From: Escherichia coli
GTDB lineage: Bacteria; Pseudomonadota; Gammaproteobacteria; Enterobacterales; Enterobacteriaceae
NCBI RefSeq assembly: GCF_044647545.1
Contig: NZ_CP172818.1
Direction: 5' to 3' (one strand)
Length of the DNA stretch: 64,000 nt
Part shown: positions 1 to 10,087 of the stretch, piece by piece
How positions within the stretch are numbered: position 1 is the stretch's first letter
Layout of the letters: each line of letters starts with the position of its first letter
The notes under the pieces: generated by a model
Databases searched by the model: none
What the model saw: the letters and a program-made list of their open reading frames with translations, nothing else
Told to the model about the DNA's origin: nothing
Program-made: the position numbers and the translations under genes

Positions 1-604
1 TTTGCCGCACTGTCGGTTCGATCAAATCTGCCCCGCGGACAATTTCGCTCACGCCCTGGAAGTGATCATCCACCACCACCGCCAGGTTATAGGCAAACAA
101 ACCATCACGGCGATGAATAATAAAATCTTCCCGTGCCAGTTTTTCGTCGGCGTGAATAATGCCTCGCAGCAGGTCAGTAAACTGGGTGACCGGATGCTGC
201 TGGCGGATACGTACTGCGGCGTTGTCTGGTCCATGATGCAAATCCCGGCAATGACCGTCGTAAATACCGCCAATGCTTTGAATACGCGCACGCGTGCAGG
301 TGCAGTAATAACTTAGTCCTTGCTCATGTAACCAGGCGAGTGCTTCGCGATAGGCGTGGTGACGTTGCGATTGCCAGAGAACGTCGCCGTCCCAGTGCAG
401 GCCGTAATGTTCCAGCTGGCGCAGGATAGTCTCTGCGGCACCGGGAACTTCACGAGGCGGGTCGATATCTTCTATGCGTACCAGCCAGAGACCTTGCCGG
501 GCGCGAGCCTGTAAATAGCTGCCAAGCGCGGCAATCAGAGAGCCAAAATGAAGCTCGCCGGAAGGAGAGGGGGCGAAGCGACCAATATAGTGTGTGTCTG
601 TCAT
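1..604 (-). CDS. gluQ: glutamyl-Q tRNA(Asp) synthetase, N-terminal ~200 codons; 3' end lies beyond window start
   Basis: Reverse-strand translation from ATG (revcomp of 602-604) gives [38 protein letters not shown]; frame still reads GluQ-like (..[32 protein letters not shown]) at window edge. Confidence 0.85.
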
Positions 605-670
605 CTCTTTGAACAAAAAATAAGGCGGGAGCATTTCCCGCCTGTGGTAAACGTGATGGAACGGCTGTAA

Positions 671-1126
671 TTAGCCAGCCATTTGTTTTTCGCGAATTTC
701 AGCCAGCGTTTTGCAGTCGATGCACAGATCGGCTGTCGGGCGCGCTTCCAGACGGCGAATACCAATTTCAACACCGCAGGACTCGCAGTAGCCGAAATCT
801 TCGTCTTCCACTTTTTTCAGCGTCTTCTCGATCTTTTTGATCAGCTTACGCTCGCGATCGCGGTTACGCAGTTCGAGGCTGAACTCTTCTTCCTGGGCTG
901 CACGGTCTACCGGGTCCGGGAAGTTGGCTGCTTCATCCTGCATATGTGTAACGGTGCGATCGACTTCATCCCTGAGTTGATTACGCCATGCTTCCAGAAT
1001 ACGACGGAAGTGCGCCAGCTGGGCTTCATTCATATACTCTTCGCCCGGCTTCTCCTGATATGGCTCCACCCCAGCGATGGCGAGAATACTCAGGGACGAT
1101 GTTTTACGGTTTTGCCCTTCTTGCAT
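671..1126 (-). CDS. dksA: RNA polymerase-binding transcription factor DksA (151 aa)
   Basis: ORF 671..1144(-) contains [19 protein letters not shown]...C4 zinc finger [25 protein letters not shown]; ATG at 1124-1126 preceded by GGAG RBS. Confidence 0.95.
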
Positions 1127-1303
1127 GTTGCTTCTCCTTAACACGCACTATCGATCCCCATGTTCGGGGGAAAAATGAGGCCGCTATAAATAGCAGATGC
1201 TTTTCCGGATAGCAATTATCTAAACGTAACACTTGACAACTGTGTGAGGAAAAGCGTATTTGCGCACGCGACCAGAATGTAAATTAACCAGTTACTTACT
1301 CTA

Positions 1304-2553
<1,250 letters not shown>

Positions 2554-2626
2554 GTGAGGCACTCGGTTATGAATTACCGCGATGCTACAATGTGGCGCGA
2601 AGAATGTTAACCCTCTGGAGCGTTTT

Positions 2627-5056
2627 GTGTCGTCGTTGCCCGTTGCTGCCGTCTTACCTGAGTTACTTGCTGCCCTCGATGGTGCATCGCAGGTGTTATT
2701 AAGTGCGCCGACCGGGGCCGGGAAATCAACCTGGCTGCCGCTGCAACTGCTGGCGCATCCAGGCATTAACGGGAAAGTTATCCTGCTGGAGCCGCGTCGT
2801 CTGGCGGCGCGTAACGTTGCGCAACGACTGGCGGAGCTGCTTAACGAAAAGCCAGGCGATACCGTTGGCTACCGGATGCGTGCGCAAAACTGCGTCGGGC
2901 CGAATACCCGCCTGGAAGTGGTTACCGAAGGCGTGCTGACGCGGATGATCCAGCGTGACCCGGAACTGAGCGGTGTTGGATTGGTGATCCTTGATGAATT
3001 TCATGAGCGCAGCTTGCAGGCGGATTTGGCGTTGGCGCTGTTACTCGATGTGCAACAAGGTCTGCGTGATGACCTTAAACTGCTGATTATGTCGGCTACG
3101 CTGGACAACGACCGCTTGCAGCAAATGCTGCCAGAAGCGCCCGTCATCATCTCAGAAGGGCGCTCGTTTCCGGTTGAACGCCGTTATTTACCGCTGCCCG
3201 CGCATCAGCGTTTTGACGAAGCCGTTGCGGTAGCCACCGCCGAAATGCTGCGTCAGGAAAGCGGATCATTACTGTTATTTTTACCTGGCGTCGGAGAAAT
3301 TCAGCGTGTGCAGGAACAACTGGCTTCGCGCATCGGCAGTGATGTGTTGCTCTGCCCGCTGTATGGCGCGTTGTCGCTGAACGATCAGCGAAAAGCGATC
3401 CTCCCGGCACCGCAAGGGATGCGCAAAGTGGTGCTGGCGACCAATATTGCTGAAACCAGTTTAACCATTGAAGGTATTCGTCTGGTGGTGGATTGTGCCC
3501 AGGAGAGGGTGGCGCGTTTTGATCCGCGTACAGGGCTTACGCGGTTGATTACTCAACGCGTTAGTCAGGCGTCGATGACGCAACGTGCCGGGCGTGCCGG
3601 GCGTCTGGAGCCGGGTATCTGCCTGCATTTAATCGCCAAAGAACAAGCCGAACGCGCCGCGGCGCAAAGTGAACCGGAAATATTACAAAGCGATCTCTCC
3701 GGTTTGCTGATGGAATTACTGCAATGGGGATGCAGCGATCCTGCGCAGATGAGCTGGCTGGATCAACCGCCAACGGTGAATCTACTGGCCGCGAAACGCC
3801 TGTTACGGATGCTGGGGGCGCTGGACGGTGAACGGCTTAGTGCGCAAGGGCAAAAAATGGCAGCGCTGGGTAACGATCCGCGTTTAGCGGCAATGCTGGT
3901 TAGCGCGAAGAACGACGACGAAGCTGCTACCGCGGCAAAAATTGCCGCCATTCTCGAAGAGCCGCCACGGATGGGCAATAGTGACCTGGGCGTGGCGTTT
4001 TCGCGCAATCAACCCGCCTGGCAGCAACGTAGTCAGCAACTGTTAAAACGCTTAAACGTACGCGGCGGTGAGGCAGACAGTTCGCTTATCGCGCCGCTAC
4101 TTGCCAGAGCGTATGCCGATCGCATTGCTCGTCGCCGTGGGCAAGATGGACGCTATCAACTGGCGAACGGCATGGGGGCGATGCTCGATGCCGACGATGC
4201 GCTAAGCCGCCACGAATGGTTGATCGCACCGTTATTATTGCAGGGCAGCGCCTCGCCGGATGCGCGGATTTTACTGGCGCTACCGGTCGATATTGATGAG
4301 TTAGTACAACGCTGCCCGCAGCTGGTACAGCAATCGGACACCGTGGAGTGGGATGACGCGCAAGGTACGCTGAAAGCCTGGCGTCGGCTGCAAATCGGTC
4401 AGTTGATGGTGAAAGTGCAGCCACTGGCGAAACCCTCGGAAGACGAGTTGCATCAGGCGATGCTTAACGGCATTCGTGATAAAGGTTTAAGCGTGCTCAA
4501 CTGGACGGCGGAAGCGGAACAGTTACGCTTGCGTTTGTTATGCGCCGCAAAGTGGTTGCCGGAATATGACTGGCCAGCGGTTGATGATGAGAGTTTGTTG
4601 GCGACGCTGGAAACGTGGCTACTGCCGCATATGACAGGCGTACATTCGCTACGCGGCTTGAAATCACTCGATATTTATCAGGCACTGCGTGGATTACTTG
4701 ATTGGGTAATGCAGCAACGTCTGGATAGTGAATTGCCTGCGCATTACACTGTGCCGACGGGAAGCCGGATCGCCATTCGTTATCATGAAGATAACCCGCC
4801 CGCGCTGGCGGTGAGAATGCAGGAGATGTTTGGCGAGGCCACCAATCCGATGATCGCCCAGGGGCGCGTGCCGCTGGTGCTGGAGTTGCTTTCCCCTGCC
4901 CAAAGGCCGCTGCAAATCACGCGTGATTTGAGCGCCTTCTGGAAAGGAGCGTACCGTGAGGTGCAAAAAGAGATGAAAGGGCGTTATCCCAAACATGTCT
5001 GGCCGGACGACCCGGCAAACACCGCACCGACGCGACGAACGAAAAAGTATTCGTGA
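2627..5056 (+). CDS. hrpB: ATP-dependent RNA helicase HrpB (DEAH-box), ~809 aa
   Basis: Walker A SAPTGAGKST, DEFH motif (ILDEFHERS), SAT motif; probable GTG start at 2627 (VSSLPVAAVLPELL), ORF track start 2582 is an extension. Confidence 0.9.
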   Translation: MSSLPVAAVLPELLAALDGASQVLLSAPTGAGKSTWLPLQLLAHPGINGKVILLEPRRLAARNVAQRLAELLNEKPGDTVGYRMRAQNCVGPNTRLEVVTEGVLTRMIQRDPELSGVGLVILDEFHERSLQADLALALLLDVQQGLRDDLKLLIMSATLDNDRLQQMLPEAPVIISEGRSFPVERRYLPLPAHQRFDEAVAVATAEMLRQESGSLLLFLPGVGEIQRVQEQLASRIGSDVLLCPLYGALSLNDQRKAILPAPQGMRKVVLATNIAETSLTIEGIRLVVDCAQERVARFDPRTGLTRLITQRVSQASMTQRAGRAGRLEPGICLHLIAKEQAERAAAQSEPEILQSDLSGLLMELLQWGCSDPAQMSWLDQPPTVNLLAAKRLLRMLGALDGERLSAQGQKMAALGNDPRLAAMLVSAKNDDEAATAAKIAAILEEPPRMGNSDLGVAFSRNQPAWQQRSQQLLKRLNVRGGEADSSLIAPLLARAYADRIARRRGQDGRYQLANGMGAMLDADDALSRHEWLIAPLLLQGSASPDARILLALPVDIDELVQRCPQLVQQSDTVEWDDAQGTLKAWRRLQIGQLMVKVQPLAKPSEDELHQAMLNGIRDKGLSVLNWTAEAEQLRLRLLCAAKWLPEYDWPAVDDESLLATLETWLLPHMTGVHSLRGLKSLDIYQALRGLLDWVMQQRLDSELPAHYTVPTGSRIAIRYHEDNPPALAVRMQEMFGEATNPMIAQGRVPLVLELLSPAQRPLQITRDLSAFWKGAYREVQKEMKGRYPKHVWPDDPANTAPTRRTKKYS

Positions 5057-5149
5057 AGACCAAAGCAAATTTGAGAGATATCTTCTTCTGTCTTGCAACA
5101 GAAGAACAGAAAATCGGGCTTTTGCGCCTGAATATTGCGGAGAAAAAGC

Positions 5150-7684
5150 ATGGCCGGGAATGACCGCGAGCCAATTGGACGCAAAGGGAAACCGACGCGT
5201 CCGGTCAAACAAAAGGTAAGCCGTCGTCGTTACGAAGATGACGATGATTACGACGATTATGATGACTATGAGGATGAAGAACCGATGCCGCGCAAAGGTA
5301 AGGGCAAAGGCAAAGGGCGTAAGCCTCGTGGCAAACGCGGCTGGCTATGGCTGCTGCTAAAACTGGCTATCGTTTTTGCCGTGCTGATCGCCATTTACGG
5401 CGTTTATCTCGATCAAAAAATTCGCAGCCGTATTGATGGCAAGGTCTGGCAATTGCCCGCGGCAGTTTATGGCCGAATGGTCAACCTTGAGCCAGACATG
5501 ACCATCAGCAAGAACGAGATGGTGAAGCTGCTGGAGGCGACCCAGTATCGTCAGGTGTCGAAAATGACCCGTCCTGGCGAATTTACCGTGCAGGCCAACA
5601 GCATTGAGATGATCCGCCGTCCGTTTGATTTCCCGGACAGTAAAGAAGGGCAGGTGCGTGCACGTCTGACCTTTGATGGCGATCATCTGGCGACGATCGT
5701 CAATATGGAGAACAACCGTCAGTTCGGTTTCTTCCGTCTTGATCCGCGCCTGATCACTATGATCTCTTCACCAAACGGTGAGCAACGTCTGTTTGTGCCG
5801 CGCAGTGGTTTCCCGGATCTGCTGGTGGATACTTTGCTGGCAACAGAAGACCGTCATTTTTACGAGCATGATGGGATCAGTCTCTACTCCATCGGACGTG
5901 CGGTGCTGGCAAACCTGACCGCCGGACGCACGGTGCAGGGGGCGAGTACGCTGACGCAACAGCTGGTGAAAAACCTGTTCCTCTCCAGCGAGCGTTCTTA
6001 CTGGCGTAAAGCGAACGAAGCCTACATGGCGCTGATCATGGACGCGCGTTACAGCAAAGACCGTATTCTTGAGCTGTATATGAACGAGGTGTATCTCGGT
6101 CAGAGCGGCGACAACGAAATCCGCGGCTTCCCGCTGGCGAGCTTGTATTACTTTGGTCGCCCGGTAGAAGAATTGAGCCTCGATCAGCAGGCGCTGTTGG
6201 TGGGTATGGTGAAAGGGGCGTCCATCTACAACCCGTGGCGTAACCCGAAACTGGCGCTGGAGCGACGTAACCTGGTGCTACGTCTGCTGCAACAGCAACA
6301 GATTATTGATCAAGAACTCTATGACATGTTGAGTGCACGTCCGCTGGGTGTTCAGCCGCGCGGTGGGGTGATCTCTCCTCAGCCAGCCTTTATGCAACTG
6401 GTGCGTCAGGAGCTGCAGGCGAAATTAGGCGATAAGGTAAAAGATCTCTCCGGCGTGAAGATCTTCACTACCTTTGACTCGGTGGCCCAGGACGCGGCAG
6501 AAAAAGCCGCCGTGGAAGGCATTCCGGCACTGAAGAAACAGCGTAAGTTGAGCGATCTGGAAACCGCGATTGTGGTCGTCGACCGCTTTAGTGGTGAAGT
6601 TCGTGCGATGGTCGGTGGTTCTGAGCCGCAGTTTGCGGGCTACAACCGTGCGATGCAGGCGCGTCGTTCGATTGGTTCTCTTGCAAAACCAGCGACTTAT
6701 CTGACGGCCTTAAGCCAGCCGAAAATCTATCGCCTGAACACGTGGATTGCCGATGCGCCAATCGCGCTGCGTCAGCCGAATGGCCAGGTCTGGTCACCGC
6801 AGAACGATGACCGTCGTTATAGCGAAAGTGGCAGAGTGATGCTGGTGGATGCGTTGACCCGTTCGATGAACGTGCCGACGGTAAATCTGGGGATGGCGCT
6901 GGGGCTGCCTGCGGTTACGGAGACCTGGATTAAACTGGGCGTACCGAAAGATCAGCTGCATCCGGTTCCGGCGATGCTGCTGGGGGCGTTGAACTTAACG
7001 CCAATCGAAGTGGCGCAGGCATTCCAGACTATCGCCAGCGGCGGTAACCGTGCACCGCTTTCTGCGCTGCGTTCGGTAATTGCGGAAGATGGCAAAGTGC
7101 TGTATCAGAGCTTCCCGCAGGCGGAACGCGCGGTTCCGGCGCAGGCGGCGTATCTGACACTATGGACCATGCAGCAGGTGGTACAACGTGGTACGGGGCG
7201 TCAGCTTGGGGCGAAATACCCGAACCTGCATCTGGCAGGGAAAACAGGGACTACCAACAATAACGTAGATACCTGGTTTGCGGGCATTGACGGCAGCACG
7301 GTGACCATCACCTGGGTAGGCCGTGATAACAACCAGCCGACCAAACTGTATGGAGCCAGCGGGGCAATGTCGATTTATCAGCGTTATCTGGCTAACCAGA
7401 CGCCAACACCGCTGAATCTTGTTCCGCCAGAAGATATTGCAGATATGGGCGTGGACTACGACGGCAACTTTGTTTGCAGCGGTGGCATGCGTGTCTTGCC
7501 GGTCTGGACCAGCGATCCGCAATCGCTGTGCCAGCAGAGTGAGATTCAGCAGCAACCGTCAGGCAATCCGTTTGATCAGTCTTCTCAGCCGCAGCAACAA
7601 CCGCAACAGCAACCTGCTCAGCAAGAGCAGAAAGACAGCGACGGTGTAGCTGGTTGGATCAAGGATATGTTTGGTAGTAATTAA
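5150..7684 (+). CDS. mrcB: penicillin-binding protein 1B (bifunctional glycosyltransferase/transpeptidase), 844 aa
   Basis: [19 protein letters not shown]..., acidic [15 protein letters not shown] tract, TM segment, GT motif [12 protein letters not shown] motifs, Q-rich C-terminus. Confidence 0.95.
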
Positions 7685-7700
7685 CGTCTAAGCGTGACAT

Positions 7701-7725
7701 ACCGGATGGCGAGTTGCCATCCGGT
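7701..7725 (+). terminator. perfect 10-bp inverted repeat hairpin just downstream of mrcB stop
   Basis: accggatggc-gagtt-gccatccggt followed by A/T-rich sequence; lacks a clean U-tract. Confidence 0.4.
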
Positions 7726-7844
7726 AAAATAACATCCCACCTAAAGTATTAACCCTTTCTTTTCATCTGGTTGTTTATTAACCCTTCAGGAACGCTCAGA
7801 TTGCGTACCGCTTGCGAACCCGCCAGCGTTTCGAATATTATCTT

Positions 7845-7880
7845 ATCTTTATAATAATCATTCTCGTTTACGTTATCATT
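7845..7880 (+). promoter_or_regulatory. Fur box / iron-regulated promoter region of fhuA
   Basis: tctttATAATAATCATTctcgtttacgTTATCATTcac contains tandem Fur hexamer-like repeats (ATAATCATT / TTATCATT) overlapping a TATAAT -10 at 7850-7855. Confidence 0.6.
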
Positions 7881-7903
7881 CACTTTACATCAGAGATATA
7901 CCA

Positions 7904-10087
7904 ATGGCGCGTTCCAAAACTGCTCAGCCAAAACACTCACTGCGTAAAATCGCAGTTGTAGTAGCCACAGCGGTTAGCGGCATGTCTGTTTATGCACAGG
8001 CAGCGGTTGAACCGAAAGAAGACACTATCACCGTTACCGCTGCACCTGCGCCGCAAGAAAGCGCATGGGGGCCAGCTGCAACTATTGCGGCGAAGCACTC
8101 TGCTACTGCGACTAAAACGGATACACCAATTGAAAAAACGCCGCAGTCTATTTCGGTTGTGACAAATGAAGAGATGCAGATGCATCAATTTCAGTCTGTA
8201 AAAGAAGCATTAGGTTATACACCTGGCGTTACAGTTAGCAGTCGTGGTGCTTCTAATACATATGATTTTGTTATCATTCGTGGTTTCTCATCTGTTGGCC
8301 TGAATCAAAATAACTACCTTGATGGACTAAAACTTCAGGGCAACTTTTATAACGATGCTGTGATTGATCCTTACATGCTCGAGAGGGTTGAACTGATGCG
8401 TGGGCCGACGTCTGTTCTCTATGGAAAAAGTAATCCTGGTGGGATTATTTCTATGGTGAGTAAGCGCCCGACCACTGACCCCCTGAAAGAAATTCAGTTT
8501 AAAATGGGGACGGATAATCTGTTTCAGACCGGATTCGATTTCAGTGATGCGCTGGATGATAACGGTGAGTTCTCCTACCGTTTGACTGGCCTCGCTCGCT
8601 CAACAAACGAACAGCAGAAAAACTCTGAATCTCAGCGTTATACCATTGCTCCATCATTCTCATGGCGGCCGGACGACAAAACCAATTTAACTTTCCTGTC
8701 CTATTTCCAGAATGAACCAGAAACGGGTTATTACGGTTGGTTGCCGAAAGAGGGGACCGTTGAGCCATTGCCTAATGGTAAGCGTCTACCGACTGACTTC
8801 AATGAAGGTGCGTCGAATAATACATACTCCCGTAACCAGAAAATGGTGGGATATAGTTTTGAACATGGTTTTAATGACACCTTCACCGTGCGTCAGAATC
8901 TGCGTTTCAGTGAAATGAAAACCTCACAGAAAAGTGTTTATGGCCACAGGGATTGCCAGCGATGGTCATACCCTAAACCGCGGGACAGTGGTGGATAATG
9001 AGCGTCTACAAAACTTTAGCGTTGATACCCAACTTGAAAGTAAGTTTGCTACAGGTGACGTCGGGCATACTTTGCTGACAGGGGTAGACTTCATGCGTAT
9101 GCGCAATGATATCAATGCCAGCTTTGGATCTGCACCATCCATCGATCTTTATAACAAATACCATCCTGAATACTTTGCATTTGGTAGCGCAGAGCCATAC
9201 CAGATGAATGAAAGCAAACAAACAGGTATTTATGTTCAGGATCAGGCGGAATGGAATAAATGGGTATTCACTCTGGGGGGGCGCTACGATTGGTCTAAGC
9301 AAGCGACCAAAAACTCTTATACGCCGACTGAAGGTTATATTGAGCGCAATGATCATCAGTTCACCTGGCGCGGTGGTGTAAATTACTTATTCGATAATGG
9401 TATTTCACCTTACTTTAGCTATAGCCAGTCCTTTGAACCGAGTGCTTTCGATCTGGGAACAAGCAACCCGCGCGTTTCCTATAAGCCATCGAAAGGTGAA
9501 CAGTATGAAGCTGGCGTAAAATATGTTCCGAATGATATGCCGGTCGTTGTTACGGGCGCAGTCTATCAATTGACGAAAACAAATAACCTGACAGCAGACC
9601 CAACAAACCCCATTAGCGAAGTCCCGCAGGTGAGATTCGCGCTCGTGGTGTGGAACTTGAAGCAAAAGCGGCGTTAAATGCCAATATTAACTTGACGGCT
9701 TCTTATACCTACACCGATGCGGAATACACCAAAGACACCAATCTCAAAGGTAAAACTCCAGAACAAGTACCGAAGCATATGGCATCTCTCTGGGGGGATT
9801 ATACCTTCAATGAAGGGCCGTTTTCTGGTTTAACATTGGGAACAGGTGGTCGTTTTATTGGTTCCAGCTATGGTGATCCGGCGAACACTTTTAAAGTGGG
9901 TAGCGCAGCTGTAATGGATGCTGTTGTAAAATATGATCTGGCACGCTTTGGTATGGCGGGATCCAGCCTTGCTGTGAACGTCAACAATTTGCTCGATCGT
10001 GAGTATGTTGCCAGTTGCTTCCAGACCTATGGCTGCTTCTGGGGCGCAGAACGTCAGGTCGTTGCAACCGCAACCTTCCGTTTCTAA
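7904..10087 (+). pseudogene. fhuA: ferrichrome outer-membrane transporter FhuA (TonB-dependent receptor), reading frame interrupted by two frameshifts
   Basis: Three consecutive ORFs (7904..8998, 8934..9677, 9650..10087) each translate to FhuA-like sequence; ORF1 and ORF3 share a frame, ORF2 is +1; junctions at ~8945-8957 and ~9629-9630. Confidence 0.85.

Follow-up and report, generated by a model that had tools for sequence, protein, structure and literature searches.

The closest described counterpart of the locus examined here is the mrcB (ponB) gene of Escherichia coli K-12 (Kato 1984; Broome-Smith 1985; NP_414691.1, YP_010051172.1), whose product, PBP1b, is observed as two bands of 94.2 and 88.9 kDa (PMC13423804). 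In addition to the annotated ATG at 164730, the K-12 RefSeq record carries a second CDS, termed 'PBP-1Bgamma', that begins 135 nucleotides downstream, at 164865. Retapamulin Ribo-seq (Ribo-RET) is reported to show a distinct peak at the internal mrcB start that had been verified earlier (10.1101/520783, citing Broome-Smith 1985), and mrcB is one of the three known positive controls of that method, the other two being infB and clpB, for whose verified internal starts such peaks are reported as well. Both of these genes likewise consist of one ORF with a primary and an internal start (IF2 alpha/beta for infB, 95/80 kDa for clpB), and their short forms lack an N-terminal module. Their proteins are unrelated to PBP1b, however, and mrcB differs in that what its short form leaves out is no folded domain but a cytoplasmic tail that is short and disordered. 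A nearer relative is MrcB of Salmonella Typhimurium, which exhibits the same two-start design, with both starts called by Ribo-RET (PMC11005335), and which retains the N-terminal peptide, the acidic tract and the EEPMPRK junction. Its extension is 42 residues long compared to 45 in the present sequence because its acidic repeat tract is shorter.

The two forms are also known to differ in function. In a 2026 study, alpha, unlike gamma, was found to concentrate at the division site and to show greater activity there, and the N-terminal alpha peptide, which is confined to the Enterobacteriaceae, was predicted to bind FtsA with R6 as a critical residue, such that septal recruitment is FtsA-dependent (PMC13423804). 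The biological importance of having two starts therefore lies in the recruitment by FtsA of alpha, and not gamma, to fortify the division septum.

The mrcB gene and its two start codons

We analysed a stretch of E. coli DNA of 64,000 nucleotides (contig NZ_CP172818.1, assembly GCF_044647545.1), hereafter the window, in which all features described below are on the + strand. The mrcB coding sequence extends from 5150 to 7684, stop codon included, on the basis of the RefSeq start and of matches to Pfam and NCBIfam profiles, and the gamma reading (5285-7684) occupies the same frame. The encoded protein scores 1733 bits against NCBIfam NF007061 (cut-off 1120) and 1248 bits against TIGR02071 PBP_1b (cut-off 718), and its Pfam domains, all above their cut-offs, are PBP1_TM (residues 1-79), UB2H (113-197), Transgly (209-379) and Transpeptidase (473-714). 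The product is thus PBP1b, a bifunctional class A penicillin-binding protein with its full domain architecture. The gene order hrpB-mrcB-fhuA, as judged from the genes annotated on either side of mrcB in a 100%-identical genome, is that of E. coli in general and of K-12 in particular. Of 5426 complete E. coli genomes, 5424 contain a match to bases 4700-5700, which cover parts of hrpB and mrcB, and several of these matches are at 100%. In 5228 of the 5424, identity to the 176-nt stretch at 5125-5300 reaches 99% or more. In fhuA, apparent frameshifts within 8940-9630 may be either real and inactivating or errors of assembly.

Comparison with K-12 mrcB reveals nucleotide identity from -53 to +171 relative to the ATG, a region that contains both Shine-Dalgarno (SD) sequences and both starts, and the first 57 residues are identical. 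The leader in the present strain carries three substitutions at -84, -81 and -54, and lacks the approximately 110 nt of REP-type repeats that K-12 has between hrpB and the conserved leader. Elsewhere in the MrcB protein, there are probably a few amino-acid differences from K-12. Because the sequence is identical to that of K-12, initiation results can be transferred to the present strain, and we therefore expect both codons to be used here as has been published for K-12, BW25113, BL21 and Salmonella.

Upstream, the mrcB frame is closed by a TGA at 5129-5131, which limits any N-terminal extension to five codons. Direct reading of the sequence gives the codons that follow as ATA, TTG (5135-5137), CGG, AGA, AAA, AGC and ATG (5150-5152). 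The TTG at 5135, the ATG at 5150 and the ATG at 5285 share one frame, wherein ATG 5285 is codon 46 as counted from 5150, and the same direct reading finds no in-frame ATG between 5150 and 5285 besides those two. A mechanical ORF listing reports the longest mrcB ORF as 5135..7684 (849 aa). The preliminary description had noted this longest ORF and placed the true start at 5150 instead, which is borne out by RefSeq, by the protein profiles, by the SD sequence and by the invariant N-terminal peptide.

ATG 5150 (5150-5152) is the primary start of PBP1b-alpha (844 aa, 94.3 kDa). Its Shine-Dalgarno sequence, GGAGA at 5139-5143, is separated from the ATG by 7 nt (counting from GGAG) or 6 nt (from GGAGA) and forms a duplex of -6.6 kcal/mol with the 3' end of 16S rRNA. 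Both GGAGA and ATG are invariant in 81 of 81 aligned Enterobacteriaceae sequences, of which 80 come from related genomes recovered by one scan of representative genomes. The start of mrcB in RefSeq, taken from a 100%-identical E. coli genome, is the base equivalent to 5150, and the Pfam PBP1_TM alignment begins at alpha residue 1. Across the same 81 sequences, residues 1-12 of alpha are invariant except for N4, and the fixed state of residues 5-12, including R6, in this sample agrees with the published account of this peptide (PMC13423804). N-terminal proteomics had been suggested earlier as a check, and such data already exist. A deformylation-assisted N-terminomics study of K-12 lists an N-terminal peptide for the mrcB ATG at 164730, the equivalent of 5150, with Ribo-RET support (PMC13245402).

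The 45 codons specific to alpha (5150-5284) encode an N-terminal peptide (5150-5191), a basic stretch and an acidic Asp/Glu/Tyr tract (5231-5281), the last of which is built from imperfect 9- and 18-nt tandem repeats. The peptide carrying R6, which is the proposed FtsA binder, is present in this strain.

The second start, ATG 5285 (5285-5287; Met46), gives rise to PBP1b-gamma (799 aa, 88.9 kDa), as evidenced by the K-12 RefSeq CDS, by Ribo-RET and by the M46L mutation, which serves to abolish gamma and to leave alpha alone (PMC13423804). An in-frame Met at 5285 following the acidic tract had been pointed out beforehand, and we confirm its position to the base. The codon follows the acidic tract and precedes the basic juxtamembrane stretch, and it maps to K-12 position 164865, so that the proposed correspondence with the alpha and gamma isoforms is upheld by the start of the 'PBP-1Bgamma' CDS. 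The masses computed from the sequence for products of 5150 and 5285 match the published bands, which supports both starts. By itself, an in-frame Met at this position would be unremarkable, given that mrcB contains 26 in-frame ATGs, 25 of them internal. However, ATG 5285 is the only internal ATG of the 25 whose SD-like duplex is as strong as -6 kcal/mol (the next best is -5.6). This SD-like element, GAGGA at 5270-5274, lies in codons Glu41-Asp42, 10 nt before the ATG, and has a duplex energy of -6.1 kcal/mol; the distance from the GAGG core to the ATG is 10-11 nt, which is above the optimal spacing. A 61-nt window around ATG 5285 folds at -8.0 kcal/mol compared to a gene mean of -15.6, placing it within the least-structured 2.6%.

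The retapamulin Ribo-seq experiment proposed in the preliminary description has likewise been performed by others, with the peak at the mrcB internal start in E. coli (10.1101/520783) and the calling of both starts in Salmonella (PMC11005335) as its outcome. The published K-12 N-terminomics table contains no N-terminal peptide for gamma (PMC13245402), but this says little because the tryptic N-terminal peptide (MPR/PR) is too short for detection.

With these observations in hand, we consider it very probable that ribosomes initiate independently at two in-frame sites on a single mrcB mRNA, 5150 and 5285, and that TTG 5135 is unused. Positions, SD strengths, structure, conservation and identity to K-12 were computed, and initiation and isoform functions are taken from the literature. 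Ribosomes bound to the canonical GGAG(A) at 5139-5143 would start at ATG 5150 and produce PBP1b-alpha, whose cytoplasmic extension of 45 residues would consist of the invariant N-terminal peptide, the basic stretch and the acidic Asp/Glu/Tyr tract. The Glu-Asp codons of that tract would create the internal GAGGA, on which other 30S subunits could load directly, within the coding region and on weakly folded mRNA. Such internally loaded subunits would start at ATG 5285 to yield PBP1b-gamma, which retains every catalytic domain along with the membrane anchor and the basic stretch next to it. The extension would then recruit alpha to the division site via FtsA, with gamma remaining peripheral (as described in PMC13423804). 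We infer that weak local structure and the SD-like site are what make Met46, alone among the internal Mets, an initiation site.

The two mrcB starts are real and ordinary biology that is already known and experimentally proven. All of this has been established for an identical sequence, and so the two-start finding adds no new knowledge, in keeping with the earlier judgement that the isoforms, being documented, do not constitute a novelty. For annotation purposes, 5150 is the correct start, 5285 marks a second documented product and 5135 should be ignored.

Conservation of the starts and competing readings

Among the 81 Enterobacteriaceae sequences, the column equivalent to Met46 is ATG in 66, GTG in seven and neither in the remaining eight. 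Given that the length of the acidic tract varies, the equivalent residue is found anywhere from position 42 to 50. All seven Val residues in this column, which represent approximately four lineages, are coded by GTG. This pattern is suggestive of start-codon retention, although a change from ATG to GTG is also a single-step mutational route. The eight losses (GCG, GCC, ACG or CGT) fall in Kluyvera, Pseudescherichia-like and Phytobacter-like lineages, and in these species no substitute in-frame start with an SD sequence was found before the membrane helix. They are therefore predicted to make alpha only, and gamma is not indispensable in the family because the internal start is missing from these relatives. 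Lineages of this kind are natural alpha-only candidates in which to ask what gamma does. The cross-species tally, with the gamma start kept in 73 of 81 and lost in eight, is a modest addition to known biology.

The description of mrcB as having alternative in-frame starts holds for 5150 and 5285 but not for 5135, such that there are two starts and not three. The TTG at 5135-5137, which is the mechanical start of the longest ORF and would add the extension MRRKS, shares the mrcB frame, in which no start-type codon comes earlier after the upstream stop. A start-type codon occupies the equivalent position in 64 of the 81 sequences (TTG in 62), and the extended form, whose mass is predicted at 94.9 kDa, would be difficult to resolve from alpha by gel electrophoresis. 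These features might be taken to indicate that TTG 5135 is a genuine additional or even the sole initiation codon, yielding a protein of 849 aa. Yet its upstream SD duplex amounts to only -2.5 kcal/mol, and the sole SD sequence nearby, which serves ATG 5150, sits 3' of the TTG at a distance of 1 nt. Moreover, the position is TAG in nine species and another non-start codon in eight more, whereas the downstream N-terminal peptide stays fixed, and the frequent conservation of the TTG is accounted for by the general conservation of the mrcB leader. By our estimate, the chance of encountering at least one of three start-type codons in the six codons after a stop is approximately 25% (1-(61/64)^6). 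The NF007061 profile starts at residue 6 of the TTG-extended ORF and RefSeq begins at 5150. The published N-terminal peptide (PMC13245402) is the Met-removed product of the 5150 start and would not be released by trypsin from the extended form, and the published function of alpha depends on its first residues, including R6 (PMC13423804). A role for TTG 5135 in initiation has accordingly next to no likelihood and is already essentially refuted. The longer ORF is an ORF-finder artefact that reflects merely the first start-type codon after the TGA. A different proposal concerns the short form, which could be generated by proteolytic trimming of alpha, with Met46 as an ordinary internal residue. 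The tail of alpha is predicted to be disordered and is highly charged. A third PBP1b form, beta, is considered to arise from alpha by proteolysis, which implies that this tail does get trimmed, although a literature search on proteolysis of the beta form returned nothing relevant. Trimming is nevertheless highly improbable as the source of the short form, given that ribosomes caught initiating at the internal site produce a retapamulin peak in both E. coli and Salmonella (10.1101/520783, PMC11005335), that M46L is used specifically to stop gamma production (PMC13423804), that the mass computed from Met46 equals that of the observed lower band, and that the SD-like and low-structure features at Met46 are unique among the internal Mets.

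Initiation at 5285 could also be real and yet incidental, as a side effect of acidic codons whose sequence fortuitously contains GAGG before a Met, rather than the source of a selected, functionally distinct isoform. Of the 73 species that retain the gamma start, 67 have an SD-like motif of -5.9 kcal/mol or stronger. When the seven upstream codons were reshuffled synonymously according to each species' own mrcB codon usage, however, the observed duplex was typical of this null (median rank 0.44), with its strength equalled approximately half the time. This comparison therefore gives no support for selection on the internal SD, and the SD-like motif appears to come largely free with the coding of Glu and Asp. 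The eight species that lack any start codon in the Met46 column, and the fact that the published division-site function is that of alpha only (PMC13423804), fit the same notion. Against it, a start codon has been retained in 73 species although repeats are otherwise gained and lost across this tract. The exclusive use of GTG for Val, with the mutational caveat noted above, and the calling of both starts in Salmonella also weigh on this side, as do the differences between isoforms in localization and septal activity (PMC13423804), which give selection something to act on. On balance, we consider a purely incidental internal start to be unlikely, while allowing it some small weight.

The probable mrcB promoter and the leader

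Published K-12 Cappable-seq data place + strand transcription starts at 164015 (weak) and 164235 (strong), both inside hrpB, and report no + strand start from 164300 to 164799. The strong start maps to A4757 of the window, with identical flanking sequence, and is preceded by -35 (TGGATA, 4722-4727) and -10 (TACACT, 4745-4750) elements with a spacing of 17 nt. We thus consider that the probable promoter of mrcB is located in the 3' part of hrpB (4722-4757) and starts transcription at A4757, which would give a 393-nt leader. A consensus scan detected no sigma-70 promoter in the spacer between hrpB and mrcB, whereas a gSELEX study predicts one there (TTGAGA-17-TGTAAC). We rejected the gSELEX prediction as the main promoter because its -10 element falls in what is a hypervariable hairpin loop in other genera and because no Cappable-seq start corresponds to it, although it might act as a weak or conditional promoter. 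Readings by eye of the conserved leader block as a sigma-E-like promoter, as a sigma-54-like promoter or as containing a GA(A/G)AAT -10 element were not convincing.

All 81 sequences show strong conservation over approximately 80 nt immediately before the alpha ATG (5069-5149), and the sequence further 5' is unrelated between genera. Within this block, RNAalifold and covariation analysis identify a hairpin at 5083-5106, located 44-67 nt upstream of the alpha ATG and composed of TTCTTCTGT, the loop CTTGCA and ACAGAAGAA. Given a transcription start at A4757, this hairpin and a second one described below probably reside within the long mrcB 5' UTR. The outer stem of hairpin 1 (TTCTTC/GAAGAA) is conserved, and its inner stem and loop are hypervariable and yet complementary. 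The 81 sequences contain 70 inner-stem haplotypes, with up to six pair types per position. In total, 92.7% of the cells are paired compared to 48-58% with slid partners, and the covariation score was reached by none of 500 shuffles, although these controls overstate significance somewhat because the structure was derived from the same, related sequences. The cells of helix 1 comprise 661 Watson-Crick, 79 G.U and 19 A.C combinations, and the excess of G.U over A.C favours an RNA of the + strand. Folding of the leader as a whole is no more stable than that of shuffled sequences (z = -0.17), and so the support for hairpin 1 is of a comparative nature only.

An Rfam 15 search of positions 4900-5400 returned only chance-level matches, the best being MicF on the opposite strand (22 bits compared to a gathering threshold of 79), and a literature search on sRNA or UTR regulation of mrcB found nothing relevant. 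We discounted a possible pairing of the TTCTTC arm of the leader with a GAAGAA just upstream of the gamma ATG, as it involves only 6 nt and a GAA-rich tract. In this study, the covarying hairpin of the leader alone is not explained by anything we found. One could propose that this hairpin, together with its invariant flanks, forms an undescribed cis-acting RNA element that affects mRNA stability or the efficiency of the alpha start, but we view this proposal with scepticism and rate it as distinctly unlikely. If the leader element were to prove genuine, it could set the alpha:gamma ratio and hence the amount of PBP1b sent to the septum. Both the hairpin and the disappearance of the gamma start from certain lineages emerged as minor side results of our analysis that might deserve examination in their own right.

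A second candidate hairpin, or palindrome (CGGGC-TTTTGC-GCCTG, 5115-5130), adjoins the region of the TGA, TTG and SD sequence. Its helix is 95% paired and displays no double-sided changes, so it is conserved mainly as sequence and represents a candidate structure. Hairpin 1 is bordered by invariant flanks, TTGAGAGAT and GA(A/G)AATC(A/G)GGC...GCCTGA, the latter running into the SD sequence.

The leader block of mrcB

A block of about 80 nt immediately 5′ of the mrcB ATG, spanning positions 5069-5149 on the plus strand, is retained in all 81 of the aligned Enterobacteriaceae sequences. It holds two hairpins, at 5083-5106 (hairpin 1) and 5115-5130 (hairpin 2). In the alignment of these 81 sequences, the inner stem and loop of hairpin 1 are hypervariable while complementarity is retained, and G·U pairs far outnumber A·C mismatches when the plus strand is read as the paired strand. 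Neither an Rfam entry for this stem-loop nor literature on the element was found, and we consider the block a possible uncharacterised mrcB leader element.

A strong Cappable-seq start of K-12 (164235) maps by sequence to A4757 of the window, which lies within hrpB, and is preceded by a promoter-like arrangement (TGGATA-17-TACACT; 4722-4757 including the start, plus strand). Given this location, transcription of mrcB appears to begin inside the 3′ part of hrpB, which would give a leader of approximately 393 nt. In K-12, repeats of the REP or G-quadruplex-hairpin type, totalling about 110 nt (386-497 of the K-12 locus, L082), separate the hrpB stop codon from the conserved leader, whereas the window strain lacks these repeats at the equivalent site (5057-5068). 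Their absence accounts for its shorter hrpB-mrcB spacer, which is 93 nt versus 195 nt in K-12.

Alternative start codons among relatives

The codon equivalent to Met46, where PBP1b-gamma begins in E. coli, is not a start codon in eight loci, which instead carry CGT, GCG, GCC or ACG. These loci derive from Kluyvera (L039 and L057), Pseudescherichia-like (L041, L055 and L058) and Phytobacter-like (L062, L066 and L067) genomes. Because the start codon is replaced, and no other in-frame start preceded by a Shine-Dalgarno (SD) sequence was found in these loci ahead of the membrane helix, we predict that these lineages are alpha-only species.

Another difference among relatives lies upstream of the alpha start. 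In 31 of them (loci L006-L027 and others), an ATG directly precedes the TTG, 18 nt ahead of the alpha start codon, in the codon order TGA ATG TTG CGG AGA AAA AGC ATG, and the longest mrcB ORF therefore begins six codons early; E. coli carries ATA (5132-5134 of the window) at this position. The additional ATG lacks an SD sequence and is probably another annotation trap.

The gamma start is flanked by an acidic tract of imperfect 9/18-nt tandem repeats (5230-5277) and a Gly-Lys stretch of imperfect 6-nt tandem repeats (5292-5316). Repeat length differs among species, and the Met accordingly falls at residue 42-50; this variation suggests that the DNA on both sides is slippage-prone. Within the acidic tract, the GAT/GAC repeats also give rise to a 40-codon ORF in the +1 frame (5238-5360, plus strand), probably no more than a side effect of the repetitive sequence.

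Apparent disruption of fhuA

The fhuA gene (from 7904), which encodes a phage and colicin receptor, is broken into two ORFs (7904..8998 and 8934..9677). Relative to an otherwise identical genome with zero differences across 1-8943, the changes fall within 8944-9625: one C is gained at 8944, 9 nt are missing at 9309, 3 nt are inserted and two bases substituted near 9456-9461, another C is gained at 9611, and single bases are lost at 9618 (C) and 9625 (G). These differences reflect either a real inactivation of fhuA or a set of assembly errors. Among the best complete E. coli genomes listed, the 8944-9625 stretch reaches just 98.0% identity; one complete-genome record with at least 99% identity was counted outside the matches listed.
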